From Planctomycetota bacterium (GTDB taxonomy: Bacteria > Planctomycetota > UBA11346), in assembly GCA_038213805.1 (NCBI GenBank), contig JBBQSO010000029.1:1-55268 (forward strand): a stretch of 55,268 nucleotides of DNA, given 5' to 3'. This document shows positions 1-50,551 of the stretch, piece after piece. Numbering within the stretch: position 1 is the first letter of the stretch; each line of letters opens with the position of its first letter. The position numbers were made by a program, and so were the translations under genes. A model generated the notes under the pieces. The model ran no database searches and was not told the origin of the DNA. It saw only the letters and a program-made list of their open reading frames with translations.

Positions 1-675
1 GGCATCAATCTCGGCAAGTCGAAGGTCGTCGACCTCGGCGACGCGCTCGCCGACTATGAGATCGCGGTGCGCGCCCTGGGCGCGCTCGCCGACTACGTGG
101 TGGTCAACGTCTCCAGCCCCAACACCCCGGGTCTGCGCGACCTGCAAGGCGAGGCGCACCTGCGCCCGCTGCTCGCCGGAGTGCGCACCGCCCTCGATGC
201 GGTGGCGCCGCCCGCGGCCGGCGCGCGCCGGCCGCTGCTGCTCAAGATCGCGCCCGACCTTGGCGAGGCGGGCATCGACGCCGCCGTCGACGTTGCGCTT
301 GAGACGGGCTGCGACGGCCTGATCGCCACCAACACCACGATCACGCGCAGCGGTCTCACCACCCCGGCCCGGCGCGTCGAGGCCTGCGGCGCCGGCGGCC
401 TGTCGGGCGCGCCGCTGCGCGCGCGCGCCACCGCGGTGCTGGCGCGCGTCGCGCGGCGCGTCGCCGGCCGCGTGCCGGTGATCGGCGTGGGCGGGATCGA
501 CTCGGCCGCCGCGGCGTGGGAGAAGATCAGCCACGGGGCCAGCCTGGTGCAGATCTACAGCGCGCTGGTGTACCAGGGACCGGCACTGGTGGGGCGGATC
601 CATGCAGGACTGGCCGCACGGCTCGAGGAACTCGGCCTGAATTCGTTGGCGGCTGCAGTCGGAAGAGATTTGTAG
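1..675 (+). CDS. pyrD: Quinone-dependent dihydroorotate dehydrogenase (5'-truncated by window edge)
   Basis: Frame open from base 1 (GINLGKSK...); motifs VNVSSPNTPGLR, LLKIAPDL, ATNTT, GGLSGAPL, IGVGGI, ASLVQIYSAL. Confidence 0.95.
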   Translation, partial: GINLGKSKVVDLGDALADYEIAVRALGALADYVVVNVSSPNTPGLRDLQGEAHLRPLLAGVRTALDAVAPPAAGARRPLLLKIAPDLGEAGIDAAVDVALETGCDGLIATNTTITRSGLTTPARRVEACGAGGLSGAPLRARATAVLARVARRVAGRVPVIGVGGIDSAAAAWEKISHGASLVQIYSALVYQGPALVGRIHAGLAARLEELGLNSLAAAVGRDL

Positions 676-907
676 GCTGATGGCTGATGGCTGATGGCTG
701 ATGGCTGATGGCTGATGGCTGATGGCTGATGGCTGATGGCTGATGGCTGATGGCTGATGGCTGATGGCTGATGGCTGATGGCTGATGGCTGATGGCTGGA
801 CTCGCCGCTGCGCGGCGAGTCGAGATTTCAATGGTAACGCGTTCCAGCTCTGCGCGCGTACAGGACCGTGGTCACGCGCCGTTAGCCGTCAGCCGTCAGC
901 CGTCAGC
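675..907. repeat. Family A inverted tandem-repeat cassette: (GGCTGAT)17 ... (GCCGTYA)4
   Basis: Left arm 675-798 starts in the pyrD TAG; right arm 878-907 contains the stop of the convergent gene; perfect 10-bp hairpin at 799-821 in the spacer. Confidence 0.95.
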
Positions 908-1961
908 TCCGGCCGGCCCGCAGGGCCGCCGCCTCCAGCCGCGCATACCCCTCGACCAGCTGCGCGACGCTCATCGTACTCAAGCAGATGTTCGCTCGGC
1001 ACGTCTTGAACACCGGCGTCTCATGGCAGAACTGGCACGGCGCCTTGCCCAGCAGCAGTTCGACCGCGCCGGGCCCGCGCGGCTGGAATACCGCGGGATC
1101 GGTCGGGCCGAAGACCACCAGCAGTGGCGTGCCGACCGCCGCGGCGATGTGCGCCGGCCCGGTGTCGACCGACAGCACGGCGTGCGAGGCGGCCAGCACC
1201 GCGCGCAGCTCGCCGAGCGGTACCGCGCCGGTCCAGTCCTGGACGCGCGCGCGCAGTTCCGCAGGCAGGCGCGCGCGGATGGCGCGCGCCTCGCGGCCTT
1301 CGGGCGCGGAGCCATGCAGCACCGCGCCGTCGCACCGCCCCTCGGCGAACAGACGGGTCAGCAGCGCCGCCCACTGCTCCGCCGCGAGGCCCTTGAGGTT
1401 GCGCCGCTTGCGCCACCACGCATGGGTCAACGAAGAACCCGCCTGGATGGCGAGCACGCGCCGGCCGAGCGCGCCCAAGCGTGCACGCGCCGCCGCAAGC
1501 GCGGTCGGAGGCACCACCAGCCGCGGCAACGCGTCGAAGCCTTCCACGGTGAAGCCGCCGCCGCTGAGCGCATCGCGGTTGGCGTCGACGACGTGGCGGT
1601 GCGCGCTGCCGGCGCGGGTGATGCTGCGCATCAGCGCCGGCCCGCGCCAGCCGTCAATCCAGCCGCGGATGAGCGCGGTCTCGCCCTCGAAGTGGATGAT
1701 CTCGTCGTAGCCGCGCGCCGCGAGCTGCGGACCAAGGCGCCGCCGTTCACCGCCGCGCAGCCAACCATCCAGCCCGCGGTCGCCAGCCGACGGGTGCGCC
1801 AGAGTGTGCACTCCCGCCAGCCAAGGCTGGTCGGCAAGCAGCGGCCGCGCCCACGATCGGGCGAGCAGCTCGACCTCGCCATCACGGGCAAGCTGGCGCA
1901 GGATCGGGGTGAGCATCACCAGGTCGCCGACCCGCGCGAAAAAGACCACCAGGCGTCGCAT
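903..1961 (-). CDS. GT9-family glycosyltransferase (ADP-heptose:LPS heptosyltransferase-like)
   Basis: N-term RVGDLVMLTP, DTGPAHIAAAVGTP, FGPTDP, C-term CQFC...C...C; start moved to ATG 1961. Confidence 0.85.
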   Translation of the reverse strand: MRRLVVFFARVGDLVMLTPILRQLARDGEVELLARSWARPLLADQPWLAGVHTLAHPSAGDRGLDGWLRGGERRRLGPQLAARGYDEIIHFEGETALIRGWIDGWRGPALMRSITRAGSAHRHVVDANRDALSGGGFTVEGFDALPRLVVPPTALAAARARLGALGRRVLAIQAGSSLTHAWWRKRRNLKGLAAEQWAALLTRLFAEGRCDGAVLHGSAPEGREARAIRARLPAELRARVQDWTGAVPLGELRAVLAASHAVLSVDTGPAHIAAAVGTPLLVVFGPTDPAVFQPRGPGAVELLLGKAPCQFCHETPVFKTCRANICLSTMSVAQLVEGYARLEAAALRAGRS

Positions 1962-2024
1962 GGGCGGGCAGCATGGGGAAGGAGGCGAGAAGGGGAAGCA
2001 GGAGGGGAAAGGGGCAGGAAGTGC

Positions 2025-2292
2025 GGGAGCGAAGGAGCACGGGAGCGAGGAAGCGGAGGCAGAGACACCAGAGAGGCAGCAGCGCACTGCAATCAGCAGG
2101 GTGGTGACTTCAGATATTCCGGATATGGTATCCTCCGCCGCGCGCGGCCACATCCGCACGGCTCAGGTGACTTCCGCCATTCTGCCGTGGCTCAGGTAAC
2201 TATCTTCGCGATTTCCCCTGTCCTGCCCTCCCCATGCGGTGTCGTCCTGGTGTCCGGCCGTCTCTCTCCCTCGCTCCTTCACTCTCTTCCCC
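2025..2292. repeat. Degenerate inverted 8-mer cassette (GGGAGCGA-like ... TCGCTCCY-like) in a divergent intergenic region
   Basis: Purine-rich arm 2025-2056, pyrimidine-rich arm 2263-2292. Confidence 0.55.
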
Positions 2293-2302
2293 GCGATCCC
2301 CC

Positions 2303-3499
2303 ATGTCCACCCCACCGCCCATCCTCTATCGCCGGCTCGCCCTGCTCACCCAGGGCGGGCTGGACATCTACCGCAACAAGACGGCGATGGGCATGCTGCG
2401 CTTCCGGCCCGAGGACGTGGTGTGCGTGATCGACGCCAAGCACGCCGGGCAGGACCTGCAGCAGCTCACCGGGGTCGGCGCCGGCGTCCCGATCGTCGCC
2501 ACCGTCATGGACGCGGTGCGCCTGGGCATCGACTGGCTGGTGATCGGCGTCGCCACGCCCGGCGGCTACCTGCCGGCCAACCTGCGCCCACAGGTCTACG
2601 AGGCGATCAAGAACCGCATCGGCGTGATCTCGGGCCTGCACGAGAGCGTCAACGGCGATCCCAACCTGGTGGCGCTGTCGGCGCGCTACGCCGTCGACCT
2701 GGTCAACCTGCGCCGCCTGCCGGACGACGAGAACCACGTCAGCACGGCGCGCGCACGCGACACCAAGGCTTTCCGCCTGCTGACCGTGGGCACCGACGCC
2801 AACATCGGCAAGACCACCACCGCCCTCGAGCTGGAGCGCCAGCTGCGCGCCCAGGGCGTGTCGGCGCGCTTCGTGCCCACCGGCCAGGATGGCAAGCTCA
2901 TCACCGGCCGCGGCGTGTGCATCGACCGCGTGATCAGCAACTTCGCCAGCGGCGCGGTCGAGCGCCTGGTCTGCCACGAGGCGCGCAGCGCCGACCTGCT
3001 GGTCATCGAAGGCCAGGACTCGATCCTTTCGCCGCCGTACTCGGGCGTGGCCCTCGCCCTGCTCCACGGCAGCTGCCCCGACGCGATGGTGCTGTGCCAC
3101 GCCCCCAGCCGCACCCTGCACCGCCATACCGACGTGCCGATCCCGCCGCTGCAGCAGTACCGCCAGCTCTACGAGGCGATGCTCGCCCCCCTCCACCCCG
3201 GCAAGGTGGTGGCGATCAGCCTCAACACCATGGGCCTGGACGAGGCCGAGGCGCGCAAGGCGTTGGTGGCCGCGCGCGCTGAGACCGGGCTGCCTGCGGT
3301 CGATCCGGTGCGCAACCTCGATGGCGGGGTCGAGGTCCTGGTCGCCGCCATACTCGCCGCTGCCAAAGGCCGGCTCCCCGCCGCGGCTACGCGTCACGCC
3401 GCCACCGCGGCCGGCCACCGGCCCGCCAAGTCCAAAGCCAAAGCCCAGGCCGCGCACGGCAAGGCCGGCGCCAAGGCGGCGATGAAGCGCAAAGGCTAG
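2303..3499 (+). CDS. DUF1611 family protein (DgcN-like P-loop protein) with Lys/Ala-rich tail
   Basis: KTAMG, GVATPGG, SGLH, VGTDANIGKTTT, TGQDG, IEGQ, LLHGSCPDAMVLCH. Confidence 0.85.
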   Translation: MSTPPPILYRRLALLTQGGLDIYRNKTAMGMLRFRPEDVVCVIDAKHAGQDLQQLTGVGAGVPIVATVMDAVRLGIDWLVIGVATPGGYLPANLRPQVYEAIKNRIGVISGLHESVNGDPNLVALSARYAVDLVNLRRLPDDENHVSTARARDTKAFRLLTVGTDANIGKTTTALELERQLRAQGVSARFVPTGQDGKLITGRGVCIDRVISNFASGAVERLVCHEARSADLLVIEGQDSILSPPYSGVALALLHGSCPDAMVLCHAPSRTLHRHTDVPIPPLQQYRQLYEAMLAPLHPGKVVAISLNTMGLDEAEARKALVAARAETGLPAVDPVRNLDGGVEVLVAAILAAAKGRLPAAATRHAATAAGHRPAKSKAKAQAAHGKAGAKAAMKRKG

Positions 3500-3623
3500 C
3501 GGTCTTTCCCCGACGCTGCCCTGTTCTTCCCGGACCGGCGAGCCCCACGGGCCGGACCGCCGCACCCGTGGGGCTGTTCCCCTGCCGCGCCCCGCCGCCA
3601 CGATGGCATCCGGAGACCGCCCC

Positions 3624-4637: not shown

Positions 4638-4881
4638 GCACCGTTCAGTAAACGCCCGTTCGCAAGTCCTTGGGAGAGCGGCAGGTCCGACTCCCGGCGG
4701 CAGCGCCTGGTAGGCTGACGGACCTCCCGGCCGAGCCTCGCCCCGCGCCCGATCCCAGGGTATGCTGTGGGCGGCCAGCGTCCGTCAGCGGCCGTGCCTG
4801 GTCAGGAGCCGCTCCATCCCCCCTGCGGGACGGGCCCCCTGGTCGGGGACGGTCGCCGCACCCGGCCACGGAGGGCCGCGC

Positions 4882-5955: not shown

Positions 5956-5956
5956 C

Positions 5957-6400
5957 ATGGTCGCCCTCAACCGCATGGTCCGCAAAAAGCTCGGCGAGAT
6001 CCTCGTCGACCAGGGCCTGCTCAGCCAGGAGCAGGTGCAGGACGCGCTGCGCCTGCAGCACCAGTCCGGCCTGCTCTTCGGCGAGACCCTGGTGCAGCAG
6101 AAGCTGATTACCGAGGACAAGATCGTGTCGGTGCTGGTCGGCCAGTTCGGCATCCCCTACATCCGCCCGACGCAGTACACCATCGCCAAGGACCTGCTCG
6201 AGATCTTCGATCCGGCGATGATGCGGCGCTTCCAGTTCGTGCCGATGGATTCGATCGGATCGGTGCTGGTCATCGCCATCGCCGGCTCCCTGACCGAGGA
6301 TGTGCTGCACGAGATCGAATCCCAGACCGGGTGTTCGCTGCAGCTGTTCCTGACGCGCATGAGCGAGATCAACCTCGTGCTGCAGAACGCCGGGCTCTGA
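5957..6400 (+). CDS. Stand-alone MshEN/T2SSE_N-domain protein
   Basis: KLGEILVDQGLLSQEQVQDALRLQ followed by LFGETLV: MshEN tandem motif; no ATPase domain. Confidence 0.8.
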   Translation: MVALNRMVRKKLGEILVDQGLLSQEQVQDALRLQHQSGLLFGETLVQQKLITEDKIVSVLVGQFGIPYIRPTQYTIAKDLLEIFDPAMMRRFQFVPMDSIGSVLVIAIAGSLTEDVLHEIESQTGCSLQLFLTRMSEINLVLQNAGL

Positions 6401-6401
6401 C

Positions 6402-8261
6402 ATGGCCAACATCGCCGGCTACAACCGCAAGCTGACGGCCCTGATGCGCAAGCACGGCCTGGTCGAGGAGGCCGCCCTGGTCGCGATGGGCGACAAGGCC
6501 GCCAAGGAGGGCCTGCTGCTCGCCAGCCTGCTGATCACCGAGGCGCTGATCGACGAATCCACCCTGATCGGCCTGGTCAGCGAGGACTCCGCCCACCCGC
6601 CGATCGACCTCGACAAGCTCAAGATCGAGCTCGACGACATCCGCAACATCAACCAGGGCGCCGATATCATCACCGAGGAGCAGTCGAAATTCTACGGCGT
6701 GGTGCCGATCGCCATGGTCGGCGACCACCTGACCCTGGCGGTCGCGAATCCCTACGACGTGATCATGGTGGACAACCTCAAGATCACCGTCGGCAAAGTG
6801 ATCATGGCGGTGGTGTCCACCGAACGCGCCATCAACAAGGCCCGCGAACTCGCCTACCATGCCCAGGAAAAGGCCATGGAGTCGCTCATGGAGACCATGG
6901 GCAACGACGGTGACGAGATCACCGTCACCGAGAAGCCCAAAGAGGATGACGAAGGCGACCTGAGCGCCGCCGAAGGCGACGAGAGCCCGGCCGTGAAGCT
7001 GGTGCGCACCATCATCGCCCAGGCCATCCAGCAGGGCGCCTCCGACATCCATATCGAGCCGTTTGAAAAGCGCGTGCGCGTGCGCTTCCGCAAGGACGGC
7101 GTGCTGCACGAGATGTTCAATCCGCCCAAGCGCCTGGAAAAGGCCATGGTCTCGCGCATCAAGATCATGACCGACACCATGAACATCGCCGAGCGCGGCA
7201 AGCCCCAGGACGGGCGCATCCAGGTCAAGATGGCCGGCAACGCCATCGACATCCGCGTCAACTCGCTGCCCACCGTGCACGGCGAGAAGGTCTGCATGCG
7301 TATCCTGAACAAGTCCAATTTGGCGGGCTCGCTCGAAACCCTCAATTTCGAACCGGCGGTGCTCGACATCGTGCGCCGCGCGATCGGCGCGCCCTACGGC
7401 ATGCTGCTGGTCACGGGCCCGACCGGCTCCGGCAAGTCGACCACGCTGTACTCGTGCCTGCGCGCGGTGATGACCGTCGAGGACAACGTCAACACCGTCG
7501 AGGACCCGGTCGAATACGAGATCGAAGGCCTCAATCAGTGCCACGTCAATCCCAAGCGCGGGCTGACCTTCGGCGCGGCGCTGCGCGCCCTGCTGCGCCA
7601 GGACCCCGACACCATCATGATCGGCGAGATCCGCGACCAGGAGACCATCGAGATCGCGGTCAAGGCCGCGCTCACCGGCCATCTGGTGCTGTCGACGCTG
7701 CACACCAATGACGCGCCATCGACCATCGCGCGCATCGTCGACATGGGCATCGAACCCTTCCTCGCCGCCAGCACGGTGCTCGCCATCGTCGCCCAGCGCC
7801 TCGGCCGCCGCCTGTGCAAGAACTGCAAAGCGCCGATGCCCAAGGAGGAGATGCCGAGTCGCGAACAGCTTCTTGAGTCCGGCTACAAGCCCGAAGAGAT
7901 CGAGGGTCTCGCATTGCTCAAGCCGATCGGCTGCAGCCTGTGCGCCGGCGGCTACAAGGGCCGCTTCGCCCTGGTCGAATGCATGGAGATGACCGACGAC
8001 CTGCGCAAGGCGATCATCGGCGGCGCCAGCACCATCGATCTGCGCAAGGCCGCGATCAAGTGCGGCATGATCACCCTGCGCCGCGCCGGCCTGATGAACG
8101 CCATGCGCGGCGTGACCTCGCTCGAGGAGGTCATGCGCCACACCATGGGCGAAGAGGTCGGCAAGGAGGACGCGCCGGTGGTCAAGAAGGCCGCCGGCGA
8201 AGGCGAGGATGCGGCCGCGGAGGTCGAGCTGCCGAAGGAGACGGCGGAGGCGGGGACCTGA
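6402..8261 (+). CDS. pilB: Type IV pilus/T2SS assembly ATPase (PilB/GspE)
   Basis: ASDIHIEP, PQDGRI, GPTGSGKSTT, EDPVEY, LRQDPD, LSTLHTND, CKNC/CSLC zinc motifs. Confidence 0.92.
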   Translation: MANIAGYNRKLTALMRKHGLVEEAALVAMGDKAAKEGLLLASLLITEALIDESTLIGLVSEDSAHPPIDLDKLKIELDDIRNINQGADIITEEQSKFYGVVPIAMVGDHLTLAVANPYDVIMVDNLKITVGKVIMAVVSTERAINKARELAYHAQEKAMESLMETMGNDGDEITVTEKPKEDDEGDLSAAEGDESPAVKLVRTIIAQAIQQGASDIHIEPFEKRVRVRFRKDGVLHEMFNPPKRLEKAMVSRIKIMTDTMNIAERGKPQDGRIQVKMAGNAIDIRVNSLPTVHGEKVCMRILNKSNLAGSLETLNFEPAVLDIVRRAIGAPYGMLLVTGPTGSGKSTTLYSCLRAVMTVEDNVNTVEDPVEYEIEGLNQCHVNPKRGLTFGAALRALLRQDPDTIMIGEIRDQETIEIAVKAALTGHLVLSTLHTNDAPSTIARIVDMGIEPFLAASTVLAIVAQRLGRRLCKNCKAPMPKEEMPSREQLLESGYKPEEIEGLALLKPIGCSLCAGGYKGRFALVECMEMTDDLRKAIIGGASTIDLRKAAIKCGMITLRRAGLMNAMRGVTSLEEVMRHTMGEEVGKEDAPVVKKAAGEGEDAAAEVELPKETAEAGT

Positions 8262-8360
8262 CCCTAGACCCTAGAGGGGTGCTTCGGGATCATGCGCGGC
8301 GTTACGTGGAATATTCACTGGAGCTGGAAAAGTCTGGCTGTCCCTAGGGTCTAGGGTCTA
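8260..8360. repeat. Family C inverted cassette: (GACCCTA)2 ... CCCTAGGG(TCTAGGG)TCTA
   Basis: Left arm overlaps the pilB TGA; right arm contains the TAG of the convergent gene (8358-8360); GGCTGTC at 8336-8342. Confidence 0.85.
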
Positions 8361-9922: not shown

Positions 9923-9928
9923 GCACCC

Positions 9929-10451: not shown

Positions 10452-10645
10452 GACGGATCGAACAGGAGGCGCGGAGACGCGGAGAATAGAGGAGGACGGC
10501 GGAGGACGGCCACTGGTCCGATAGCCACCTCGGTTATGTGAACGGTGGACCCGCAGGATGCGGTCAGGCGAGCCCGGCCCCCCTCTTCTCACCTCCGCGT
10601 CTCCGCGTCTTGTTTTATCCGGCTGTCCGCGTCAATCCGGCTGTC
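10452..10645. repeat. Family D inverted-repeat element (arms with two CGCGGAGA-type units and GGATARAACA)
   Basis: Left 10452-10485, right 10593-10627, duplicated ATCCGGCTGTC to 10645; arms homologous to 35132-35330 and 41793-41941. Confidence 0.85.
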
Positions 10646-10649
10646 GGCG

Positions 10650-12113
10650 TCAGTTGCCGCCGGCCTTCTTGCGGTCGCGCTCGGCCTGCGCGGCCTTGGC
10701 GCGCTCCTCGCGGGCCTTCATCTCGGCCTCGCAGGCTTTCATCGCGGCGTCCAGGGTCGGCTGCCACTCCGCTTCCTTCTTCAGGTCCTTGGCGAGCGGG
10801 CCCTTCTCGACGTCCTTGTAGGCGCAGGGGTAGATCTTGAGCGCGAAGATCACCGAACGCATCGCCAGCTTGGGGAAGTGCTGGCCGAGCTGCCGGCGCG
10901 CGTCGCCCAGGATCACCGCGGCGAACTCCGGCTTGCGCAGCTCGACGTCCTGCAGCGCCAAGCCGACGTCGACGGTGTTGTCGCGCATCGACACCATCTC
11001 CAGGCCGTTGTTCTGGCCCTGCAGGTGGTAGACGAAGATTTTGTGCAGGTCGACGAACTTGACCACGATCTCGTCGCTGACGGCGGTCGCCTGCAGGCTG
11101 CTGACCTTGCTGCTCGCGACCTTCTTCGAGGCCACCAGCGCCTTGATCGCCGGCAGGTCGAGGACGATGCGCGCCGCGGCCAGCAGCTTGGCGTTGGCCT
11201 GCAGGTACTGGTTGAACTCGGCGTTCTCGTCGGGGGCGCTCTTGTACAGCGTCGGGATGAGCAGGTCGACGTCGAGGTTGCGGGCCGACTTCATCATCAG
11301 CTTCTTGCCCGAGAATTCATAGCTGACGATGTGCTTGTTGGCCTCGTCGATGAGCACGAAGCGGTCGAGGGTGCCGGCGGAGACCCACGGGTCGCTGGTC
11401 TGCAGCGCGGCCGAGCCACCGCCCTCGGCCTGGGCCTTGAAGGCCGCGTCGATGGCCTCTTTCTGGTCCTTTTTGATGTCGTTGGGCAAGGCGTCGAGGA
11501 TCGCCTGCGGCAGGGGCGATGACTGGTAGCTCTGCGGCACGTAGAGGTCGGCGCCGTAGTTGCGCCAGCCGGCGAGCTGCGGTGCCTTGGTGCGGTCGGT
11601 GATCTCGTAGAACATCAGCACGTGCTTGGCCGGCACGCAGATCATGATCGCGGTCTGGCCCATCGCGGCGCGCACCACGCCGTCATAGGGGTGGTCCTTG
11701 GCCCAGAACTCGGTCTCGGCCTGCAGCACGCGGTCGCGCAGCGGCTTGAGTCCGGCCGCGGCTTCTTTGACGGTCGGCTTGTCGGGCAGCGCCTTGACCA
11801 GCAGCATCTCAGAGGGGATGTCCCAGTTCCCCGAGCCGACGCGCAGGGTGCTGAACACCTCGCCGTTGCGGTCGTCGTAGGGCCGGCCTTCAAGGATCTC
11901 GAGGTCGATCAGGAAGTTGGTGGCGCCCTGGCGGGTCAGCTGGCTGCCCTCGACGGTGTACATCGCGATGGTGCCCAGGCTGGCGTCGACCTCGGCATAG
12001 AAGGTGCTGTTGCCGCCGCTGCCGCCGTTGCCGGGGCGCAGGATCATCGGGGTCTCGGTCGCCGCTGCCCAGGCGAAGGCGGCGAGCAGGACGGTGATGA
12101 ACAGGATTCTCAT
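10650..12113 (-). CDS. Secreted hypothetical protein with four internal beta-rich repeats
   Basis: Signal peptide MRILFITVLLAAFAWA; typical codon usage; four repeats ending R(N/D)xxxD(L/V). Confidence 0.75.
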   Translation of the reverse strand: MRILFITVLLAAFAWAAATETPMILRPGNGGSGGNSTFYAEVDASLGTIAMYTVEGSQLTRQGATNFLIDLEILEGRPYDDRNGEVFSTLRVGSGNWDIPSEMLLVKALPDKPTVKEAAAGLKPLRDRVLQAETEFWAKDHPYDGVVRAAMGQTAIMICVPAKHVLMFYEITDRTKAPQLAGWRNYGADLYVPQSYQSSPLPQAILDALPNDIKKDQKEAIDAAFKAQAEGGGSAALQTSDPWVSAGTLDRFVLIDEANKHIVSYEFSGKKLMMKSARNLDVDLLIPTLYKSAPDENAEFNQYLQANAKLLAAARIVLDLPAIKALVASKKVASSKVSSLQATAVSDEIVVKFVDLHKIFVYHLQGQNNGLEMVSMRDNTVDVGLALQDVELRKPEFAAVILGDARRQLGQHFPKLAMRSVIFALKIYPCAYKDVEKGPLAKDLKKEAEWQPTLDAAMKACEAEMKAREERAKAAQAERDRKKAGGN

Positions 12114-13522: not shown

Positions 13523-13710
13523 GGCTGATGGCTGATGGCTGATGGCTGATGGCTGATGGCTGATGGCTGATGGCTGGCGGCTGGCGCCCCGAGCCCCTGG
13601 CCGGTGGCCTGGGGGCTCGGGACCCGAGGGATGCAGACTGCTGATACCCCGGGGGCAGAGAGCTGGCGCGCGAGCGCCGGCCATCAGCCATCAGCCATCA
13701 GCCATCAGCC
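13523..13710. repeat. Family A inverted cassette: (GGCTGAT)7(GGCTGGC)2 ... (GCCATCA)4
   Basis: Left arm 13523-13585, right arm 13680-13710; GC hairpin in the spacer. Confidence 0.95.
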
Positions 13711-16003: not shown

Positions 16004-16153
16004 GCCGCAGAGGCGTAGCGGGAAGTCAGGAGGGCCGCAGCGGGCAGCCCTGGCGGATGGTCCCTGCACATGGGCCTGGCCCGCTCCCCACCGCAGCCGA
16101 CGTCGCGTACGCCCCTCTACGGCCCTCCTGCCTGCCCTCTGCGTCGCTGCAGC
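16004..16153. repeat. Imperfect 42-bp inverted repeat with CGCAGAGG-like units
   Basis: 16004-16045 vs 16112-16153 match at 32 of 42 positions by manual alignment. Confidence 0.65.
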
Positions 16154-17736: not shown

Positions 17737-17889
17737 GTCCGGAAGTCCGGGGTCCGGAAGTCGACAGCCAACCGAGGCTCCGAGAGGTCCTGCGCTTGGA
17801 GGGGGTGAATGAATCCAAGAGGCGGCCGCCAGGTCCAGGGCTGTCCGACTTCCGAACTTCCGGACTTCCGGACTCCGGACTTCCGGACC
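17737..17889. repeat. Family B inverted cassette (empty): (GTCCGGRR)3-GTCGACAGCC ... GGCTGTC-C(GACTTCCG)n
   Basis: Left arm 17737-17769, right arm 17839-17889, between convergent stops. Confidence 0.92.
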
Positions 17890-19268: not shown

Positions 19269-19361
19269 GCTGATGGCTGATGGCTGATGGCTGATGGCTG
19301 ATGGCTGATGGCTGATGGCTGATGGCTGATGGCTGATGGCTGATGGCTGATGGCTGATGGC
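19269..19361 (+). repeat. Family A single-arm array, about 13 x GGCTGAT
   Basis: Begins 14 nt after the hisF stop; preceded by palindrome GCATCGCGCGATGC (19257-19270); no inverted arm seen. Confidence 0.95.
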
Positions 19362-19489
19362 CCAGGGATTCCGGAGTTATTCCCGACCGCAAGGATCGGA
19401 TCGCGCGCCTTACCCTGCATTGCTCGCGCCTCGCGCCACCCCGACCCGTTCCGGCCTTGCGTCCCATCGCTGAGCGTCGAGAAAGGCGC

Positions 19490-26283: not shown

Positions 26284-26775
26284 GTCCGGAAGTCCGGGAG
26301 TCCGGAAGTCCGGGAGTCGACAACCACCGGGATCCCCACGTGGCGAGCTTCACCCATTTCTCAGAGATCCAGGCGTGGAAAGAGGCTCGCGCGACAGTCG
26401 TCGCGGTCCACGCGCTGCTTGATCATCCACGGTTCGCGCAACGGTTCGCGCTGCAGCATCAGCTCAGCCGGGCCGCACTTTCCGTGATGAACAACATCGC
26501 CGAAGGGTTTGCGCGCGGGAGCGACCCTCAATTCTGCCACTTCCTTGACATCGCGCGCGGTTCGTCGGCCGAGGTCGAGTCGATGTTGTATGTTATAGAG
26601 GATCTGGCGCCTGAATTGGCGCCGGACTTGGTCGAGTTACGCGGGCGCATCGATCTCATGATTTCACTGATTTCCAAGCTCTCCAAATACCTCCGTGGCT
26701 CCAGAGCTCGGGAAGCGGAGGAATCCTATGGTTCCAAGCCGACTTCCGGACTCCCGGACTTCCGGACTTCCGGAC
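26284..26775. mobile_element. Family B inverted cassette filled with a four-helix-bundle gene (putative mobile cassette)
   Basis: Left arm (GTCCGGRA)4-GTCGACAACC 26284-26325; right arm GAC(TYCCGGAC)4 26741-26775; separates guaB from guaA. Mobility is inferred. Confidence 0.6.
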
Positions 26776-26780
26776 TGTGA
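26340..26780 (+). CDS. Four helix bundle protein (23S rRNA intervening-sequence protein family, Avd-like)
   Basis: F.EIQAWKEA, FAL..QL.RAALSVMNNIAEGFAR.S...F..FL.IARGS.AEV.S.LY; GTG start; atypical codon usage. Confidence 0.9.
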   Translation: MASFTHFSEIQAWKEARATVVAVHALLDHPRFAQRFALQHQLSRAALSVMNNIAEGFARGSDPQFCHFLDIARGSSAEVESMLYVIEDLAPELAPDLVELRGRIDLMISLISKLSKYLRGSRAREAEESYGSKPTSGLPDFRTSGL

Positions 26781-28492: not shown

Positions 28493-29446
28493 ATGCCGGT
28501 CTTCTCTGACAACGCCCTGTCCATCGGCCGCACCCCGCTGGTGCGCCTCAATCGCGTCACCGCCGGCTGCGGCGCCACCGTGCTGGCCAAGATCGAGGGG
28601 CGCAACCCCGCCTATTCGGTGAAGTGCCGCATCGGCGCGGCCATGGTGTGGGATGCCGAGAAGTCCGGCAAGCTCAAGGCCGGCATGGAGATCGTCGAGC
28701 CGACCAGCGGCAATACCGGCATCGCCCTGGCCTTCGTCGCAGCCGCGCGCGGCTACAAGATCACCCTGACCATGCCCGAGACCATGTCGATCGAGCGCCG
28801 CCGCGTGCTCGCCGGCTTCGGTGCGACCCTGGTGCTGACGCCCGGCGCCGAAGGCATGAACGGCGCAGTGAAGAAGGCCGAGGAGATCGCCGCCTCGGAT
28901 AGCGCGCGCTGGTACATGCCCCAGCAGTTCAAGAACCCCGCCAATCCCGCCATCCACGAGGCCACTACCGGCCCCGAGATCTGGGAGGATACGAATGGGG
29001 GCATGGACGTGTTCGTCGCCGGTGTCGGTACCGGCGGCACCATCACCGGCGTCTCGCGTTACTTCAAGAACATCAGGAAGAAGGCGATCATCAGCGTCGC
29101 CGTCGAGCCCGCGCTCAGCCCGCTGCTGACCCAGAAGCGCGCCGGTCAGGAACTGAAGCCCGCCGGACACAAGATCCAGGGCATCGGCGCGAACTTCATC
29201 CCCGAGATCCTCGACCAGTCGCTGCTCGACCGCGTCGAGACCGTCAGCGTCGACGAGTCGGTCGAGATGGCACGGCGCCTAATGCGGGAGGAAGGCATCC
29301 TGTGCGGCATCTCCTGCGGCGCCGCTGCCGCCGTTGCAGTGCGCCTGGCGAAGCTGCCCGAGTTCGCAGGCAAGACCATCGTGACCGTGCTGCCCGATTC
29401 GGGCGAGCGCTACTTGTCGACGGTGTTGTTCGAGGGGTTGGGCTGA
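28493..29446 (+). CDS. cysK: Cysteine synthase A
   Basis: [46 protein letters not shown]. Confidence 0.96.
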
Positions 29447-29660
29447 TGGCTGATGGCTGATGGCTGATGGCTGATGGCTGATGGCTGATGGCTGCCGCCT
29501 CCTCATTCAATCCAACGTGTACATCGGTAATATCCGTTTCCCGAATTGAATGAGCCCGCGGAGCGGGCGCATACGTGCCTGTCCCGCAATCGCACCGTGC
29601 GTGACATTTTATTGCTGATTTTCTCGCGCCTCGCGCCTCAACACTCACGCGTCAGCGTCA
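29441..29660. repeat. Hybrid cassette: (GGCTGAT)7 left arm, degenerate CTCGCGC right arm
   Basis: cysK TGA lies in the first unit; right arm about 29623-29660 ends in the fumarase-beta stop; inner inverted repeat CTCATTCAAT/ATTGAATGAG. Confidence 0.85.
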
Positions 29661-30243: not shown

Positions 30244-30306
30244 TCTAGGGTCTAGGGTCTCGCGTCTCGCGTCTCGCGTCTCGCGTCTCGCGTCTCGCAT
30301 CTCGCA
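30244..30306 (-). repeat. Chimeric in-phase heptamer array (TCTAGGG)2(TCTCGCG)5(TCTCGCA)2
   Basis: Lies between the hydratase alpha stop and beta start. Confidence 0.92.
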
Positions 30307-31273: not shown

Positions 31274-31400
31274 GACGATAGACCTTAGACCCTAGACCCT
31301 AGGGACAGCCAGCGCGCGTTTCCCGCGATCGCCACCGCATCCGACGATTCGTGAATCCTGAGGCGCCAGCCGGTTCCCTAGGGTCTAGGGTCTAGGGTCT
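31274..31400. repeat. Family C inverted cassette: (GACCCTA)n-GGGACAGCC ... CCCTAGGG(TCTAGGG)2
   Basis: Left arm 31274-31310; right arm 31376-31400 supplies the lipoprotein stop (31385-31387). Confidence 0.9.
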
Positions 31401-32786: not shown

Positions 32787-32841
32787 GGTCTGAAATCCTG
32801 AGGGCGTTGAAACGGCAATTCGACGACGTCGAACGTCGGCA

Positions 32842-32952
32842 GACCCGAGACCCGAGACCCGAGGCAGTGGACATGTGGCAAAATCCGCGCCCCGACGTCG
32901 CCACCAACCTCTGAACCACGACCTAGGGTCTAGGGCCTAGGGCCTAGGGTCT
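32842..32952. repeat. Family C inverted cassette: (GACCCGA)3 ... (YCTAGGG)4
   Basis: Left arm 32842-32862; right arm 32922-32952 contains the thrS stop (32944-32946). Confidence 0.88.
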
Positions 32953-35131: not shown

Positions 35132-35330
35132 GACAGCCGGATAGAACAAGACGCGGAGACGCAGAGACCGGAGGAGGAGAGACGCGGGTGGGCGTGCTAT
35201 GCCTGCTCGCCGATCCTGTCGCAGCCCGGAGTCCACGGGCCAAGAACGCGAAGGCGCGGGCGGAGTGGCGCCGAATCCGGCCCATCCTCTTCCGACCTCC
35301 GCGTCTCCGCGCCAGTTTTATCCGGCTGTC
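35132..35330. repeat. Family D inverted-repeat element
   Basis: GACAGCCGGATAGAACAAGACGCGGAGACGCAGAG ... CTCCGCGTCTCCGCGCCAGTTTTATCCGGCTGTC. Confidence 0.9.
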
Positions 35331-35344
35331 GGGCCGAACCCCGC

Positions 35345-38602: not shown

Positions 38603-38613
38603 CGGTCTCGCCG

Positions 38614-38739
38614 GTCCGGAAGTCCGGGGGTCCGGAAGTCCGGAAGTCGACAGCCCCGCGCTGCACAGAGCTCTTTTTTCACGCCCACCACCCCCGACCA
38701 CGAGACTTCCGGATTTCCGGACTTCCGGACTTCCGGACC
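38614..38739. repeat. Family B inverted cassette (empty): (GTCCGGRR)4-GTCGACAGCC ... GAC(TTCCGGAY)4
   Basis: Left arm 38614-38655, 48-nt spacer, right arm 38704-38739; lies within the ilvB-ilvN operon. Confidence 0.93.
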
Positions 38740-41792: not shown

Positions 41793-41941
41793 GACAGCCG
41801 ATAAAACAGGAGGCGCAGAGGCGCGGAGATAAGAGGAGCGAGATCCGGGAATCTGCAGTCCGCGCTCGTCACCGGAGCCCCATCTTCCAAGCTCCTGCCT
41901 CCCCCTCCGCGTCTCCGCGCCTCCTGTTTTATCCGGCCGTC
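41793..41941. repeat. Family D inverted-repeat element
   Basis: GACAGCCGATAAAACAGGAGGCGCAGAGGCGCGGAG ... CTCCGCGTCTCCGCGCCTCCTGTTTTATCCGGCCGTC, between convergent genes. Confidence 0.9.
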
Positions 41942-43230: not shown

Positions 43231-43380
43231 GGCCGGCCACCTTGGCGACCCGGCCCCACGAGGCAACGTGGCGCGCGGGCCAGTGTCTGCAGTGTGGTTG
43301 AGCCATGCACACCGCACGACGCCGCAGCGCGCCGCGGCCTTGCGCCTTGCCGCCCCCGGGGAAGGCGCATGAATGCCGCC

Positions 43381-43647: not shown

Positions 43648-43790
43648 TCGACGACGGTCGCCCCTTGCTGCGCATGGGGGTTATGGCTTCCCGCACGGTG
43701 CCGACCAGGCTGGCGGCTGGTGCGCGAAATCGGTTGTGTCCAAGGCGATGCTTGGATGCTCGCGCGCTCACCGGATTCCTGGGAGCGTGC

Positions 43791-45737: not shown

Positions 45738-45810
45738 GGTGCCCACGGGGCGGCTCGCGAGCGGCGGGGTGAGTCACCGCGAAGGTCCACCGCTTGCACT
45801 CCTCAGCGCC

Positions 45811-47085
45811 GTGGACCACCCGACCATCGCCGCCTGCGCCACGCCGGTGGGCGGCCACAGCGCGATCATCCGCCTGAGCGGTCCCGCGGCCGGCGTCATC
45901 GCCGCGCGCGCCGGTCTGAGCCTGCCGGCACCGTGGCAGGCCCTGTCGTCGGCGTGGGCGCTGCCAGCCGGCGATTGCCCGTGCCGCGTCCTGTTCGCCC
46001 CCGGGCCACGCAGCTTCACCGGCACCGACCTGGTCGAGATCACCCTGCCGGGCGCCGCCGACCTCATCGCGTTCGCGCTGGAGGCGCTGCTCGCCGCGGG
46101 AGCGCAGGCCGCCGCAGCCGGCGCCTTCACGCGCCAGGCGCTCGCCAACGGGCGCCTCGGCCTGGACCAGGCGGAGGCGATCCTCGCCCTGGTCCAGGCG
46201 CCCGACGCGGCCGCGGCCGCGCAGGCCCTGGCGCGCCTGCGCGGCGCACTCGGCGCCGAGCTGGCGCAGGTGCGCGACGAATTGATCGGCGCGCGCGCCC
46301 TGGTCGAAGCCGGGCTCGACTTCGTCGACGAGGCCGACGTGCGCGCCTACGATCCGCCCGCGCTGCGCGCCCGCTGCCAGGCCATGCACGCCGTCCTGGC
46401 GCGCTGGCGGATCGCCGCCGACGCGCTCGAGGCGCGCCCGACGGTAGTGCTGGTCGGACCGGCCAACGCCGGCAAGTCGGCGCTGTTCAACCGCCTGGTC
46501 GGTGATGCCGCGTCCCCTGCGCTGGTCAGCGCGCAGCCAGGCACCACGCGCGACTGGCTCGACGGAGAGTGGGATGCAGCCGGGCGGAGCGTGCGCCTGG
46601 TCGATACCGCCGGCTGGCTGGACGGCGCCGCCAGCCTCGACCAGCAGGCCATTGCCGCCGGCGCCGCCGCCCTCGCTGGCGCCGCCCTGGTGCTGGCCTG
46701 CTCCGCCCCGGACGCACGCCTGTCCGCGCTGCCGGAATCGCTGCCGGCGGAGCGCACGCTGATCATCGCCACCAAGCACGATCTCGGCCCGGCCGATGCG
46801 CGCGCCGTGCACGCGCTCAGCGCCGCCACTGGCGCCGGTATCGCGCAACTCGCCGGCCTGGTCGCCGCCCGCCTCGGCGGCACCGCTGCGGGCGAACCCC
46901 GCCAGCAGCGCCTGCTGGCCGCCGCCGACGAGCTGCTCATCGCACTGACGCACCGCCTGCCACCCGACGAGCTGCTCGCCGATGATTTGCGCCGCGCCGG
47001 CGACCTGCTCGGAGAACTGCTCGGCGCGACCACCACCGACGATGTGCTTGAGGCCATCTTCAGCAGGTTCTGCATCGGCAAGTGA
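45811..47085 (+). CDS. mnmE: tRNA modification GTPase MnmE
   Basis: IRLSG, P.SFTG.D.VEI, GPANAGKS, GTTRD, DTAG, C-term IFSRFCIGK; follows yidC. Confidence 0.9.
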   Translation: MDHPTIAACATPVGGHSAIIRLSGPAAGVIAARAGLSLPAPWQALSSAWALPAGDCPCRVLFAPGPRSFTGTDLVEITLPGAADLIAFALEALLAAGAQAAAAGAFTRQALANGRLGLDQAEAILALVQAPDAAAAAQALARLRGALGAELAQVRDELIGARALVEAGLDFVDEADVRAYDPPALRARCQAMHAVLARWRIAADALEARPTVVLVGPANAGKSALFNRLVGDAASPALVSAQPGTTRDWLDGEWDAAGRSVRLVDTAGWLDGAASLDQQAIAAGAAALAGAALVLACSAPDARLSALPESLPAERTLIIATKHDLGPADARAVHALSAATGAGIAQLAGLVAARLGGTAAGEPRQQRLLAAADELLIALTHRLPPDELLADDLRRAGDLLGELLGATTTDDVLEAIFSRFCIGK

Positions 47086-47100
47086 AGGCGCCCGCCCCGC

Positions 47101-47604
47101 TCAGAACCAGGTCGTGAACGACATGCTCATGCTGAAGGTCTGCGCCCACAGGTCGGGGTGGCGCATCACGTCGTTGCCGACCATCAGCTCGACCAGGCGG
47201 TCCTGGTTCTCGCCGAAACGCAGGGTGGGGCGGTCGAAGGCCACCGTGCCGGCGCGCTCGCTGGCGGTCAGCGGCGCCGCGCTGACGCGCACGCCGACGG
47301 CGATGGTGCGACGCGAGTTGAAGGCGCTGAGCGGGATGTCGAGGCCGAGGCTGACACCGGTACCGACCTCGCCGGTGTCGCCGGCGTAGATCTCGGGCCG
47401 CACCAGCAGCCGAAACGGGGACAGGCCCAGGTGACGGTTGAATTCCAGTGCGGCACCCGGACGCAGGGCCGAGCGGTCTCCGACCACGTCGCCGAGGATG
47501 TGCGAGACCTGCTGATCGAGCTCGCGCTCGGCCGCCATCGCCTGTCGACAGGCCAACAACATGACCAGCAAAGCGCCCAGCCGGATTGCGCGCGACATGC
47601 TCAT
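47101..47604 (-). CDS. Exported hypothetical protein, possible small outer-membrane beta protein
   Basis: Signal peptide; alternating beta strands; terminal WF. Confidence 0.55.
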   Translation of the reverse strand: MSMSRAIRLGALLVMLLACRQAMAAERELDQQVSHILGDVVGDRSALRPGAALEFNRHLGLSPFRLLVRPEIYAGDTGEVGTGVSLGLDIPLSAFNSRRTIAVGVRVSAAPLTASERAGTVAFDRPTLRFGENQDRLVELMVGNDVMRHPDLWAQTFSMSMSFTTWF

Positions 47605-47725
47605 CGCGCCTCCTTCCCGGGCGCCGCGGGACCATTCCCGCGAACCCGCACAGCGTAACCCCCCGGGGATGCCCCGCCCGCGAAAACCCGGACCCCCTGG
47701 GCAATCGCGCCGCATCGTCGCGCAC

Positions 47726-48862
47726 TCATGGCAGTGCCAACAGCGCACGCACCTCGCGCACATAGGCGGTGGCGAAATCCTCAAGCTCGGCCGCGGTAGT
47801 GGTGCCGCCGATCGACACGCGCACCACGCTGCGCGCCAGGTCGGCAGGCAGACCAAGCGCGGCCACCACATGGCTGGGCTCGCCGCGCAGCGCCATGCAC
47901 GCCGCCCCGCTCGACACCGCGCAGCCGGCGAGGTCGAGGCGCACCACCAGCGGTTCGCTGCGCACCCCGGGATGCACCAGGCTCATGGTGCCGGGCAGGC
48001 GCTCAGCCTCGTGCGCCAGCCAGCGCGCCTGCGGCAGCGCGGCGCTGATCCGCGTCCAGGCCCCGGCGAGCAGTGCGCGTTCGCGCACGTCCTCGGCCGC
48101 GGCCCCGGTCGCGGCCTCGGCCAATGCCGCAGCGAGCGCCGCAGCGTTGGCGGCGTCCTCGGTGCCCGAGCGCCGGTCCTGCTGCTGGCGGCCGCCCGCG
48201 ATCAGCGGCGGCACGCGCCGGCCATTGCGGGCATAGAGCACGCCGCAGCCCTTGGGTGCGCCGAACTTGTGCCCGGCGATGCTGGCGAAATCCACGCCCA
48301 GCGCGCCAAGGTCGAGCGCGGCCTTGCCGGCGCCCTGGCAGCAATCGAGCAGCAGCGCCGCCCCCGGCGCGGCGGCGCGCAGCGCCGCGACCAGCCCCGC
48401 CACATCCTGGCGCGTGCCGAGCTCGTTGTTGGCGAACTGCGCGCAGGCCAGGCGCGTGCGCGGCCCCGCGGCGGCGGCCAGGGTCGCGGGCGCAAGCCGG
48501 CCGGCGGCATCGACCGGCAGGGTGCGCAGCGTGCAGCGTTCCTGCTGGGCGGCATTGCGCAGCACCGAGCTGTGCTCAATCGCGCTCGCCAGGACCTCCC
48601 CCTCCTCCGCGCCATGGCAGGCGGCGTGGATGGCCAGGGCGTTGGCCTCGCTGCCGCCGCTGGTCAGCACCAGTTCATGCGCCTGGCACCCGAGCGTGCG
48701 GGCGAGCGCACTGCGCGCCGCGTCGAGCGCCGCCCGGGCGCGCTGGCCGGCGGCGTGCACCGAGCCGGGGTTGCCCCAAGCCGCGTCCTGGGCCGCCAGC
48801 CAGGCTGCGCGCGCCACCGCGCGCAGCGGCGCCGTGGCGTTGTGATCAAGGTAGGCCGGCAT
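47726..48862 (-). CDS. Cysteine desulfurase (IscS/NifS family)
   Basis: YLDHNAT.P, GNP.S.H, TSGGSEAN, ANNE.G, HKFGAPKG, SSGAAC. Confidence 0.92.
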   Translation of the reverse strand: MPAYLDHNATAPLRAVARAAWLAAQDAAWGNPGSVHAAGQRARAALDAARSALARTLGCQAHELVLTSGGSEANALAIHAACHGAEEGEVLASAIEHSSVLRNAAQQERCTLRTLPVDAAGRLAPATLAAAAGPRTRLACAQFANNELGTRQDVAGLVAALRAAAPGAALLLDCCQGAGKAALDLGALGVDFASIAGHKFGAPKGCGVLYARNGRRVPPLIAGGRQQQDRRSGTEDAANAAALAAALAEAATGAAAEDVRERALLAGAWTRISAALPQARWLAHEAERLPGTMSLVHPGVRSEPLVVRLDLAGCAVSSGAACMALRGEPSHVVAALGLPADLARSVVRVSIGGTTTAAELEDFATAYVREVRALLALP

Positions 48863-48994
48863 GGGGGGCAGTGTCGGCGGCCGACCGGCCAGTCCACGAC
48901 CATGCGCACGGGTGGCCGGGCGATTGCTGGCCTCCACCGCCCGGCGCCCTAGGCTGCCCGCGCCGCTGACCCCCTCCCGCACCTGGAAATCCCC

Positions 48995-49807
48995 ATGGCC
49001 ATCCCTCGCCTCGCCTTCGCAACCCTCCTCGCCACCGCTTGCGCAGCGTCCCTCCACGCCGCGGAACAGGACGCCGCACCGCCCCTGGAGGCGGCCGAGC
49101 CCATCCCCACGGGCGATGGCCTGTTCGCGCGCACCGGCCTCGACCCGACCCGGGTCACCACCGCCGTGGGCGGACGGTACCAAGTCGCCACGAACGATTT
49201 CAATGGTTCGGATGGGACCGCGGAAGTGCTCAAGGGCTCCTTCGCGTGGAACGACCTCTCGGTGGCCGCCACCGTGCCCGCGCTGGTGCGCGTCAACCCC
49301 GGTGCCGGCAGCACCGAGCACGGCTTCGGCGACATCGGTCTGCGCGGCGAGTACGCGCAGCGCGTGAACGCGCAGCTCTATGGCGCGCTCGGCCTCGACG
49401 TGACGCTCAACACCGCCGAGAAGGACGTGCTGGGCGGCAACGCCACCATCATCGCCCCCTTCGTCGCGCTCTCCTTCGAGCGCAACGTCAAGGAACGCTG
49501 GCTGCTCGAGATCCACTACTCCACCGATGTCGCCCGCGAGGACGGCACGGTACCGCACACCCGGCTGCTCGAGGGCCGCCTGGGCTGGCTGCGCGACCTT
49601 GGCCACGGCTTCGTCGCCAAGCTCGAGGCGCGGCCGTCCTACGACGACGAGCGCCAGCACACCGGCCTGGCCGCGTTCGGCGCGATCAGCAAACTCATCG
49701 ATGGACACAGCGCGCTGTCGGTGGACATCCTGCAGCCCATCGACCGTGACAACCGCCATGCCTTCGGCTGGCAGTTCGCGCTGGAGTACCGCTACAACTG
49801 CTTCTGA
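48995..49807 (+). CDS. Putative outer-membrane beta-barrel protein
   Basis: Signal peptide; GFGDI motif; amphipathic strands; terminal YRYNCF. Confidence 0.65.
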   Translation: MAIPRLAFATLLATACAASLHAAEQDAAPPLEAAEPIPTGDGLFARTGLDPTRVTTAVGGRYQVATNDFNGSDGTAEVLKGSFAWNDLSVAATVPALVRVNPGAGSTEHGFGDIGLRGEYAQRVNAQLYGALGLDVTLNTAEKDVLGGNATIIAPFVALSFERNVKERWLLEIHYSTDVAREDGTVPHTRLLEGRLGWLRDLGHGFVAKLEARPSYDDERQHTGLAAFGAISKLIDGHSALSVDILQPIDRDNRHAFGWQFALEYRYNCF

Positions 49808-49934
49808 ACCACCGGCGCCGGCTGACCGACCGCAGCCTGACGCCCGCCGCGCTTACCGGCGGCGGGCCCGGGCCCAGCTTCGTTGGCCTGCCGGCGGCGC
49901 CAACCGGCCTCACCGCTCGCGATGGAGCACCGCC

Positions 49935-50369
49935 ATGGACAGCGCGCGCCACATCCTGCACCTCGACGACAATCCCGCCGACCTCGAGCTGGTGCGTCTC
50001 GCCGTAGCCGAAGGCGGCCACCGCGATATCGTGGTCGACAGCGTGAGCAGTCCGCAAGCGGCCCTGGCGCGCATCGCCGCCGGACCGACGCCGGAACTGA
50101 TCATCTGCGACCTACGCCTGCCCGACAGCGATGGCATGAAGTTCATCCAACGTCTGCACCGGCTGCCGGCGCTCGCGCGCGTCTCCGTGATCCTGCTCAC
50201 TGGCGTGCAGTCGGCCGAGGCGCCGCGCGACCAGCCCTTTGTCGCCGGCATCTACCACAAGCCACCGGTGTGGGCGGAGCTCGTCGCGTTGATGACCGAC
50301 CTGGTGCGGCGCTTCCTGCCCCCGCGCGAGGTCGTGGTCATGCCTGGGCGCACCCGCACCGACCACTGA
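49935..50369 (+). CDS. Single-domain response regulator
   Basis: ILHLDDN, LIICDLRLP..DG, ILLTG, KP. Confidence 0.85.
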   Translation: MDSARHILHLDDNPADLELVRLAVAEGGHRDIVVDSVSSPQAALARIAAGPTPELIICDLRLPDSDGMKFIQRLHRLPALARVSVILLTGVQSAEAPRDQPFVAGIYHKPPVWAELVALMTDLVRRFLPPREVVVMPGRTRTDH

Positions 50370-50376
50370 ATCGGGG

Positions 50377-50551
50377 GGCTGGCGGCTGGCGGCTGGCGGC
50401 GAAAATGACAGCCGACCTCGATGTGTGCTTATTGAACTCACCCCGTGACGGGGAGTCCACGTGCCGATGCCTGACATACGCGCTGTCAGCCATCAGCCAT
50501 CAGCCATCAGCCATCAGCCGTCTGCTGTCAGCCTTCAGCCTTCAGCCTTCC
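50377..50551. repeat. Family A inverted cassette: (GGCTGGC)3 ... 10 in-phase GCCATCA-type units
   Basis: Left arm 50377-50400; right arm 50482-50551, drifting GCCATCA to GCCTTCA; GACAGCC at 50407. Confidence 0.88.

Follow-up and report, generated by a model that had tools for sequence, protein, structure and literature searches.

The stretch of DNA analyzed here is contig JBBQSO010000029.1 (assembly GCA_038213805.1) of a soil bacterium of the Planctomycetota; it is 55,268 nucleotides long and is called the window throughout. It forms contig C29 of a 5.5-Mb genome (labelled G000) with 69% GC. Between its housekeeping genes lie short intergenic elements in which a tandem array of a non-palindromic 7–8-mer word faces an inverted array of the same word family across a spacer. 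An earlier note, made from the sequence alone, had counted about 17 such inverted-arm elements. All of its arrays are present, and 13 of the 17 are true pairs; the rest are two hybrids (19269 and 29441), a single array (30244), and a pair of degenerate blocks (2025). Twelve of the true pairs are clean and family-matched (family A, 675, 13523, and 50377; family B, 17737, 26284, and 38614; family C, 8260, 31274, and 32842; family D, 10452, 35132, and 41793), and the thirteenth, 16004, is degenerate. An Rfam scan of the window gave zero matches. Element positions are listed in Table 1.

Table 1. Elements of the window, named by the start positions of the earlier note, with their measured extents. 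G010 (the closest relative) and G003 are related genomes; REP, repetitive extragenic palindromic.
Element	Type	Position	Strand	Description
675	Family A	675..907		17.7 copies of GGCTGAT (675-798), 79-bp spacer, variant right arm (878-907)
2025	Degenerate block pair	1990..2285		Purine-rich block facing pyrimidine-rich block, without a clean word
8260	Family C	8260..8360		Convergent neighbors, a type IV pilus/secretion ATPase gene and an L7/L12-domain gene
10452	Family D	10452..10622		After smpB; 18-bp duplication at right end (10617-10652)
13523	Family A	13523..13710		Pair
16004	Degenerate pair	16004..16153		GCAGAGG-type words, resembling arms of GxxExxY cassettes in relatives
17737	Family B	17737..17888		Between convergent genes
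19269	Hybrid	19269..19437		13.3 copies of the family-A word, then two copies of CTCGCGC; empty or remnant in G003
26284	Family B, gene-bearing cassette	26284..26776		Between guaB and guaA; arms 26284-26318 and 26741-26776
	Four-helix-bundle gene (PF05635, TIGR02436)	26340..26780	+	Frame crosses the right arm, stop just beyond
29441	Hybrid	29441..29639		Family-A left arm, REP-like palindrome at 29552, short CTCGCGC arm
30244	Single compound array	30244..30305		TCTAGGG and GTCTCGC; between two fumarase genes
31274	Family C	31274..31400		Pair; empty in G010; homologous spacer in G003 (69%)
32842	Family C, variant arms	32841..32949		Pair; empty in G010
35132	Family D	35133..35333		130-bp spacer; G010 spacer 88% identical
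38614	Family B	38613..38739		Between acetolactate synthase large and small subunit genes; G010 spacer 89% identical; empty or remnant in G003
41793	Family D	41795..41938		After purE
50377	Family A, variant left arm	50377..50547		Pair; G010 spacer 79% identical

The same architecture recurs across the genome in several word families, as had been proposed from the window. A family-blind caller of inverted 7/8-mer array pairs no more than 300 bp apart found 264 pairs, vs. 5 and 1 in two shuffled genomes. Polarity is the same in 239 of the 240 family-assigned pairs (A, 73; B, 87; C, 27; D, 27 of 28; E, 24), where E is a fifth word family (GCGGAGT), absent from the earlier note. The arrays are thus paired and oriented genome-wide, not randomly oriented and solitary, and the fixed polarity described in the earlier note holds well beyond the window. 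Spacers measure 54–154 nt (5th–95th percentile; median 88, mode ~80 bp) and are slightly lower in GC than the genome (0.65 vs. 0.69). With a crude gene caller, the median distance from arm to gene 3′ end is 21 nt (183 of 271 within 30 nt; the left arm of 675 starts at the stop codon of a dihydroorotate dehydrogenase gene), and convergent gaps contain arms at twice the rate (67/594) of co-directional (137/2545) or divergent gaps (34/608). Local duplications are common at arms. Of 360 contig ends in the assembly, 27 fall inside an arm. Contigs from public runs, which may derive from the source sample, cross elements 31274 and 32842 without differences (X1 and X2), and homologous elements are present in independently assembled relatives; as far as can be told, the elements are not an assembly artefact.

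Some arms enclose a gene, and the word goes with the kind of gene. Of the 17 elements, only one encloses a gene, the four-helix-bundle gene of 26284. Its protein has a relative in the PDB (2gsc), and the guaB–guaA cassette is also found in G010 and, with the same word, in a genome of another genus (G046). In total the genome has five PF05635 genes and one GxxExxY gene. Family A arms on contig C19 flank one of the PF05635 genes, inside an ABC-transporter operon, while family D arms on C28 flank the GxxExxY gene between the RtcB and RNA cyclase genes. The GAGGAG shoulders of this last cassette, which are non-repetitive, recur in gene-less D elements; the GxxExxY protein itself carries a nuclease-type Pfam label (PF13366). 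The four-helix-bundle protein is only weakly Avd-like, with one protein scoring 26.6 on the Avd model (cut-off 80).

In a tree of 48 proteins, the guaB-site genes with the B word (GTCCGGAA) from two genera cluster together (97/97), as do genes with GCT words (100/97), and those with GTC/GTT words form a weaker clade (91/81). Clades that match word classes indicate shared descent of word and gene, not recognition of one by the other. Under a strict rule that favors 8-mers, inverted arrays were found at 33 of 76 relatives in other phyla (31 of the 33 are 8-mers), compared to none of 63 shifted controls; four of 80 loci were left out for short flanks. Gene cassettes are also loyal to their sites across genera (guaB–guaA, MoxR–DUF58, fumarase, RtcB–RtcA).

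Other contents and contexts were seen at or near such loci. On contig C44 (41380-41654), B arms surround a short lysine/alanine-rich open reading frame (ORF), histone-like by eye and conserved in G010, which may be cargo of another sort or a resident gene that became enclosed. The guaB–guaA gap of G005 and G022 (L004, L012) holds small unrelated ORFs without repeat arms, so this site accepts arm-less cargo too. A second class of four-helix-bundle genes has a conserved hairpin leader, which starts with GTGCTCG(G/C)CGTCAAGG, directly before the ribosome binding site. The motif has eight copies in this genome (e.g., C6:60738, C9:21371, C115:11707); genes of this class are numerous in some relatives (loci such as L066-L075, L306-L312, L320, and L322) and account for the larger part of the four-helix-bundle protein tree's second main branch.

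Orthologous sites in relatives are often empty or hold another family. The comparison with G003 covered 433 anchored gaps in 0.84 of ~4.6 Mb, with gap length and orientation uncontrolled. Of 86 sites armed here, 28 carry the same family in G003, 17 another family, and 41 none; a different family thus occupies 17 of 58 sites, vs. a background of 32 of 347 arm-less sites (odds ratio 4.1, p = 9e-5). Within the window, 8260, 31274, and 32842 are empty in G010 (8260 as a clean 3-bp site), and G003 has an empty or remnant site at 17737 (a 12-bp gap), 19269, 26284, and 38614. Another family was found in at least one relative at 10452 (a family-B arm in G010, a D-variant element in G003), 13523, 30244, and 41793 (other arms and a REP-like cluster in G003), and site 2025 has a family-C element in G003 and a different word in G010. 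A REP-like palindrome cluster takes the place of 675 in G003. At 8260 the same genome (L213:380-2350) has a C arm, beyond which come a small membrane-type ORF, richer in AT, and, at the contig end, a transposase-like gene of 464 aa. Empty orthologous gaps span 3–53 bp. Since some orthologous sites are nearly empty, the spacers are not ordinary ancestral intergenic DNA around which arms arose by slippage, an option that the earlier note had raised against itself. Microhomologies of 2–8 bp at filled/empty junctions fit loss as well as gain.

Gene cassettes take part in this turnover. Of 11 sites where relatives hold one, two have the gene here, five have gene-less arms with another word, three have nothing, and one is unclear. 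The five include 30244, where G058 and G062 have a four-helix-bundle cassette, and 38614, where G008 and G009 have one with another word. At C13:32208, a B element has replaced a GxxExxY cassette still held by G010, G003, G007, and G009.

Spacers of different loci are mutually unrelated, as noted for the window, and this holds genome-wide save for tandem duplicates and a few family-A pairs. Searched against the genome with blastn, 33 of 216 spacers gave a match, weak or to a nested repeat. Only 21 of 27,966 all-vs-all pairs reach a score of 36, a score that 10 of 16 orthologous controls attain, and most of the best 14 within-genome pairs inspected are nested arrays, mini-palindromes, or tandem duplicates. 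One mini-palindrome, GGCGC(G/T)(C/T)(A/C)GCGCC, often lies just inside one arm of family A elements (C61:25065, C65:17234, C22:65282) and marks a subfamily whose spacers are related.

Between genomes, spacers at the same site can be aligned. For G010, about 0.25 of 4.3 Mb was compared, partly in stretches selected for carrying B arms, so that site counts for this genome are biased. Sixteen orthologous spacer pairs are colinear and nearly constant in length, with a pooled identity of 0.72 and a core divergence of 29–34%, and substitutions hit all four bases. Array-free gaps diverge by 15%, and fourfold sites by 14% overall; weakly biased genes reach 22–24% at such sites, and two four-helix-bundle genes have 27% and 38%. 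The simplest reading is that spacers would be drifting without constraint at about the neutral rate, perhaps with a modest excess beyond it. Hypermutation of spacers, whose divergence is twice the average fourfold value, was not adopted, as weakly biased genes reach 27–38%. In three of 23 homologous pairs the spacer is inverted between the two genomes, as at 13523 (reverse score 84, forward 21). No PF05635 or GxxExxY coding trace was found in 257 spacers, a test with a power, at 15% decay, of 45–76% for internal gene fragments and 2–20% for joined cassette ends. The “variable cargo” that the earlier note had placed between the arms is therefore not what these 50–160 bp middles look like: they are inherited with the site, stable in length, close to neutral in their drift, invertible, and free of any coding trace. 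Conversion of arms around a retained spacer was not seen, and sites that differ in family have unrelated middles. Variants of the left and right arms do not covary in any of the five families, which means that each arm tracks its family word and not its partner.

Word families are patchily distributed across genera. Nine of 48 family genomes, spread over five genera, have at least 25 matches to the exact B word, and 34, congeners among them, lack it altogether; no more than two or three genomes are rich in the A word. Metagenomes yielded 122 B-word loci with 37–71% GC, containing 33 inward and no outward pairs within 300 bp, and none of the 33 pairs bears a gene. In viral contigs we found 11 stretches of the A word and none of the B word. 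The metagenome assembly SXGR01 (~51% GC) contains eight B-armed elements, and in six of six pairs tested among them the middles are 65–71% identical, with a conserved core hairpin, and the flanks are unrelated. This is the best evidence that gene-less elements may be copied whole and then erode. Because the same arms enclose related middles at unrelated loci there, the unrelatedness of spacers in our genome is best read as age. A conserved inner hairpin is common to SXGR01 loci L340, L341, L347, L350, L392, L413, L440, L443, L450, and L454; it may be what was originally the element's core, or else a REP nested within it.

Possible traces of exchange extend into the flanking genes. Beside swapped alleles, the last five codons have a third-position divergence of 0.30, vs. 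0.17 at array-free long gaps in G010 (p = 0.02) and 0.22 in G003 (p = 0.012). Further inward in the same genes the value is ~0.15–0.19 (p = 5e-5), second positions are unchanged, and same-family sites show a smaller, non-significant rise. At site 17737 in G010 there is a tandem duplication with 27 and 62 nt of two gene tips, in which the inner copy of one tip has G003-like rather than resident residues. G009 has, upstream of a GxxExxY cassette, a duplicate of the RNA cyclase gene's first 60 nt, which departs from the working copy at six positions, five of them third positions. Both duplications pair different alleles of a gene tip and fit either integration of short foreign pieces by gene-tip homology or later replacement of the working gene.

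Taken together, we consider it probable (roughly 0.6) that the elements are non-autonomous mobile hairpins, that is, gene-less forms of word-armed cassettes with a PF05635 gene (families A and B) or a GxxExxY gene (family D). A family would enter a lineage horizontally as a gene-bearing cassette, and its arms and middle would then be copied into gaps beside gene ends by a trans-acting factor that recognizes the word, for which the cassette-encoded protein is the first, putative candidate. The middle, being unconstrained, would erode until copies appear unrelated, while slippage would keep renewing the arms with the family word. Recombination between arms could flip the middle, and short microhomologies could delete the hairpin; alleles at a gene boundary may also be swapped between lineages, taking the flanking gene's last few codons along. 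The earlier note had ascribed all arms to one process of generation or propagation. Propagation does account for them better than independent slippage; that one process lies behind all arms is less certain, as PF05635 and GxxExxY, two gene families at the least, each come with words of their own. More tentatively, and with the odds in our view against it, the elements could form a widespread class of mobile element without a transposase, in which the four-helix-bundle or GxxExxY protein recognizes its own word on a hairpin of DNA or RNA and drives the copying of this hairpin to gene boundaries, where the incoming piece replaces the last codons of the target gene.

Several observations weigh against the mobile-hairpin reading. 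There are about three gene-bearing copies (A, B, and D) for ~240 empties, families C and E have no gene-bearing copy in this genome, and PF05635 is not known to have a catalytic site. Almost no spacer has a recognizable donor within the genome, including that of the apparently young B element at C13:32208. No consistent target-site duplication was found in 20 filled/empty alignments, and several empty sites look like losses by microhomology (e.g., a palindromic GTCCGGAC remnant). Five B-rich genomes, from incomplete assemblies, show no B-clade gene; the gene occurs in four of nine B-rich and six of 39 other genomes (p = 0.075). Finally, a stop-codon excess at gene tips held in G010 (10/29 vs. 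2/26) and not in G003 (13/66 vs. 24/118).

Two other explanations give mobility of the gene-less forms a smaller part or none. The elements may be RNA hairpins that the host retains, with transcript arms pairing as processing sites, stabilizers, or two-way terminators and mobility being secondary. Strong predicted stems (z −4.8 to −10.6), arms that abut gene 3′ ends with a preference for convergent gaps, and the occurrence of the same protein family in RNase III-excised rRNA inserts (PMC4990558; this and the other papers cited here are represented by excerpts) would all suit such a role. We nevertheless regard it as unlikely: transcribed strands show no clear excess of G-U over A-C mismatches (65 vs. 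50, p = 0.19), arm variants do not covary, arm lengths show no asymmetry with transcription, and close relatives often have the site empty or with a swapped element. Alternatively, a gene cassette that arrived by homologous recombination between flanking genes could have lost its gene in place, leaving an immobile remnant. The site loyalty of gene cassettes, the gene-tip signal, and spacer lengths that vary widely among sites and are stable within a site are all as expected from local decay, yet it is quite unlikely given the related middles at unrelated SXGR01 loci, and where relatives hold a gene cassette the empties here usually carry a different word. The lack of a gene trace in 257 spacers also counts against decay through internal fragments, with low power for joined ends.

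Nor do the spacers look like captured DNA. If every insertion put arms around a new foreign piece of ~80 bp, the elements serving as a dispersed system of memory or cargo, then unique spacers with a mode near 80 bp and slightly lowered GC would be expected, as would the missing donor of the apparently young element. We think this improbable: the ~28% drift between close relatives and the flipping of spacers would destroy a guide function, middles are held in common in SXGR01, and spacers have no convincing match elsewhere in the genome. A single 20-mer of the 10452 spacer also gave zero matches in a metagenome scan, a search of low power. Polymerase slippage for the arrays and template switching across local intergenic DNA for the inverted partner would need no mobile element at all. 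Slippage is clearly active, judging from long perfect arrays and local duplications, and is the hypothesis cited for heptamer excess (PMC4692102). On its own it is very improbable and largely refuted, by the 239/240 polarity, the all-or-none spread of the B word across genera, and the SXGR01 middles; the small number of recurring words, the shared non-repetitive D shoulders, the link between gene and word, and the 3–53 bp empty orthologous gaps also count against it.

Known systems share parts of this pattern. MITEs (miniature transposable elements with inverted repeats) are short, non-coding sequences with inverted ends that are copied whole. The elements here are likewise short and non-coding with inverted ends, and whole copying is seen in SXGR01, but they have no transposase-type terminal repeats, and no consistent target-site duplication was seen in the 20 filled/empty alignments; a MITE-like conserved interior is absent among the copies in this genome and present for the same arms in SXGR01. 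The short tandemly repeated repetitive (STRR) heptamers of cyanobacteria form arrays in non-coding DNA. Only a few such arrays are paired in Nostoc (PMC4692102), whereas nearly all are paired here. The GGGAATC heptamer arrays of Xanthomonas are also intergenic, near gene ends, and often in inverted pairs (70 in Xcc, 75 in Xac); their length varies between species and their function and origin are left without explanation (Rehm et al., 2015; PMC4692102). There, each genome has one word, compared to at least five here, and the excerpts connect the arrays neither to a cargo gene nor to mobility. Because our words lack GGG tracts, the G-quadruplex role considered for Xanthomonas does not carry over.

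The closest functional parallel is with REP doublets forming hairpins (REPINs) and REP-associated tyrosine transposases (RAYTs), where two inverted units likewise flank a spacer to form an extragenic, non-autonomous hairpin, with lineage-specific families and hundreds of copies for one or few that bear the gene (PMC3337134, PMC3116915). REPIN units are single REP palindromes, unlike the tandem non-palindromic words here, and our elements are patchy across genera, unlike REPIN/RAYT. None of five matches to the Y1 (RAYT) transposase model PF01797 has an A–E or GCGAG[A/G]C word within ~400 bp, and one Y1 gene (C97) has separate REP-like palindromes on its flanks. In its workings the system resembles REPIN/RAYT, but it lacks two of the defining traits, a REP-palindrome unit and a Y1 gene flanked by the units. 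Intervening sequences of 23S rRNA with S23p/PF05635 carry the same protein family within a stem and come in ORF-bearing and ORF-less forms (PMC4990558; 10.1101/2024.02.27.582315). They sit in rRNA genes, whereas our sites lie between protein-coding genes, the stems here are made of tandem words, and there are hundreds of copies. As in an invertible switch, the segment between inverted repeats occurs in both orientations, here between genomes. A CRISPR-like memory was rejected, as arms are solitary inverted pairs, the window has no Rfam match, and spacers drift and invert. A diversity-generating retroelement was rejected on the low Avd score, the lack of a reverse transcriptase among 50 window proteins, and changes at all four bases.

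Both PF05635 and GxxExxY proteins are common and uncharacterized, and 7–8-mer arrays are a recognized oddity without an accepted origin or role. Tandem inverted repeats around such genes may already have been described. Our literature search, with subscription journals and supplements outside it, found no paper linking such arrays to PF05635 or GxxExxY genes. PMC8700078, as excerpted, mentions four-helix-bundle genes and not the repeats, and PMC4692102 leaves the origin and role of bacterial heptamer and octamer arrays as a question. What the present analysis adds is the fate of the middle, the reuse of sites, the gene-tip signal, and the evidence for copying. If arrays are the arms of cassettes, two puzzles would merge into one system of protein, word, and hairpin, to which this genome would add a life cycle in which a family bursts, its middles erode and flip, elements are lost, and the same gene boundaries are used again. 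The genome also shows that such elements perturb the ends of core genes and fragment assemblies. A class without a transposase, if real, would explain the long-noted excess of 7–8-mer arrays and give a job to two large protein families.

Three further features of the window were noted. The REP-like palindrome nested in hybrid 29441 (29552-29569) has 56 matches in the genome, both strands counted, and in G003 sites 29441 and 41793 are occupied by these palindromes. At 6400-6402, a 1-bp gap separates two MshEN-domain genes where G010 and G003 have a family-E element, which appears to have been lost precisely here between short TGAC repeats. A low-complexity coding repeat with periods of 6, 9, 12, and 27 (54054-54141), near the start of an ATP-grasp/alpha-E gene, is unrelated to the elements.

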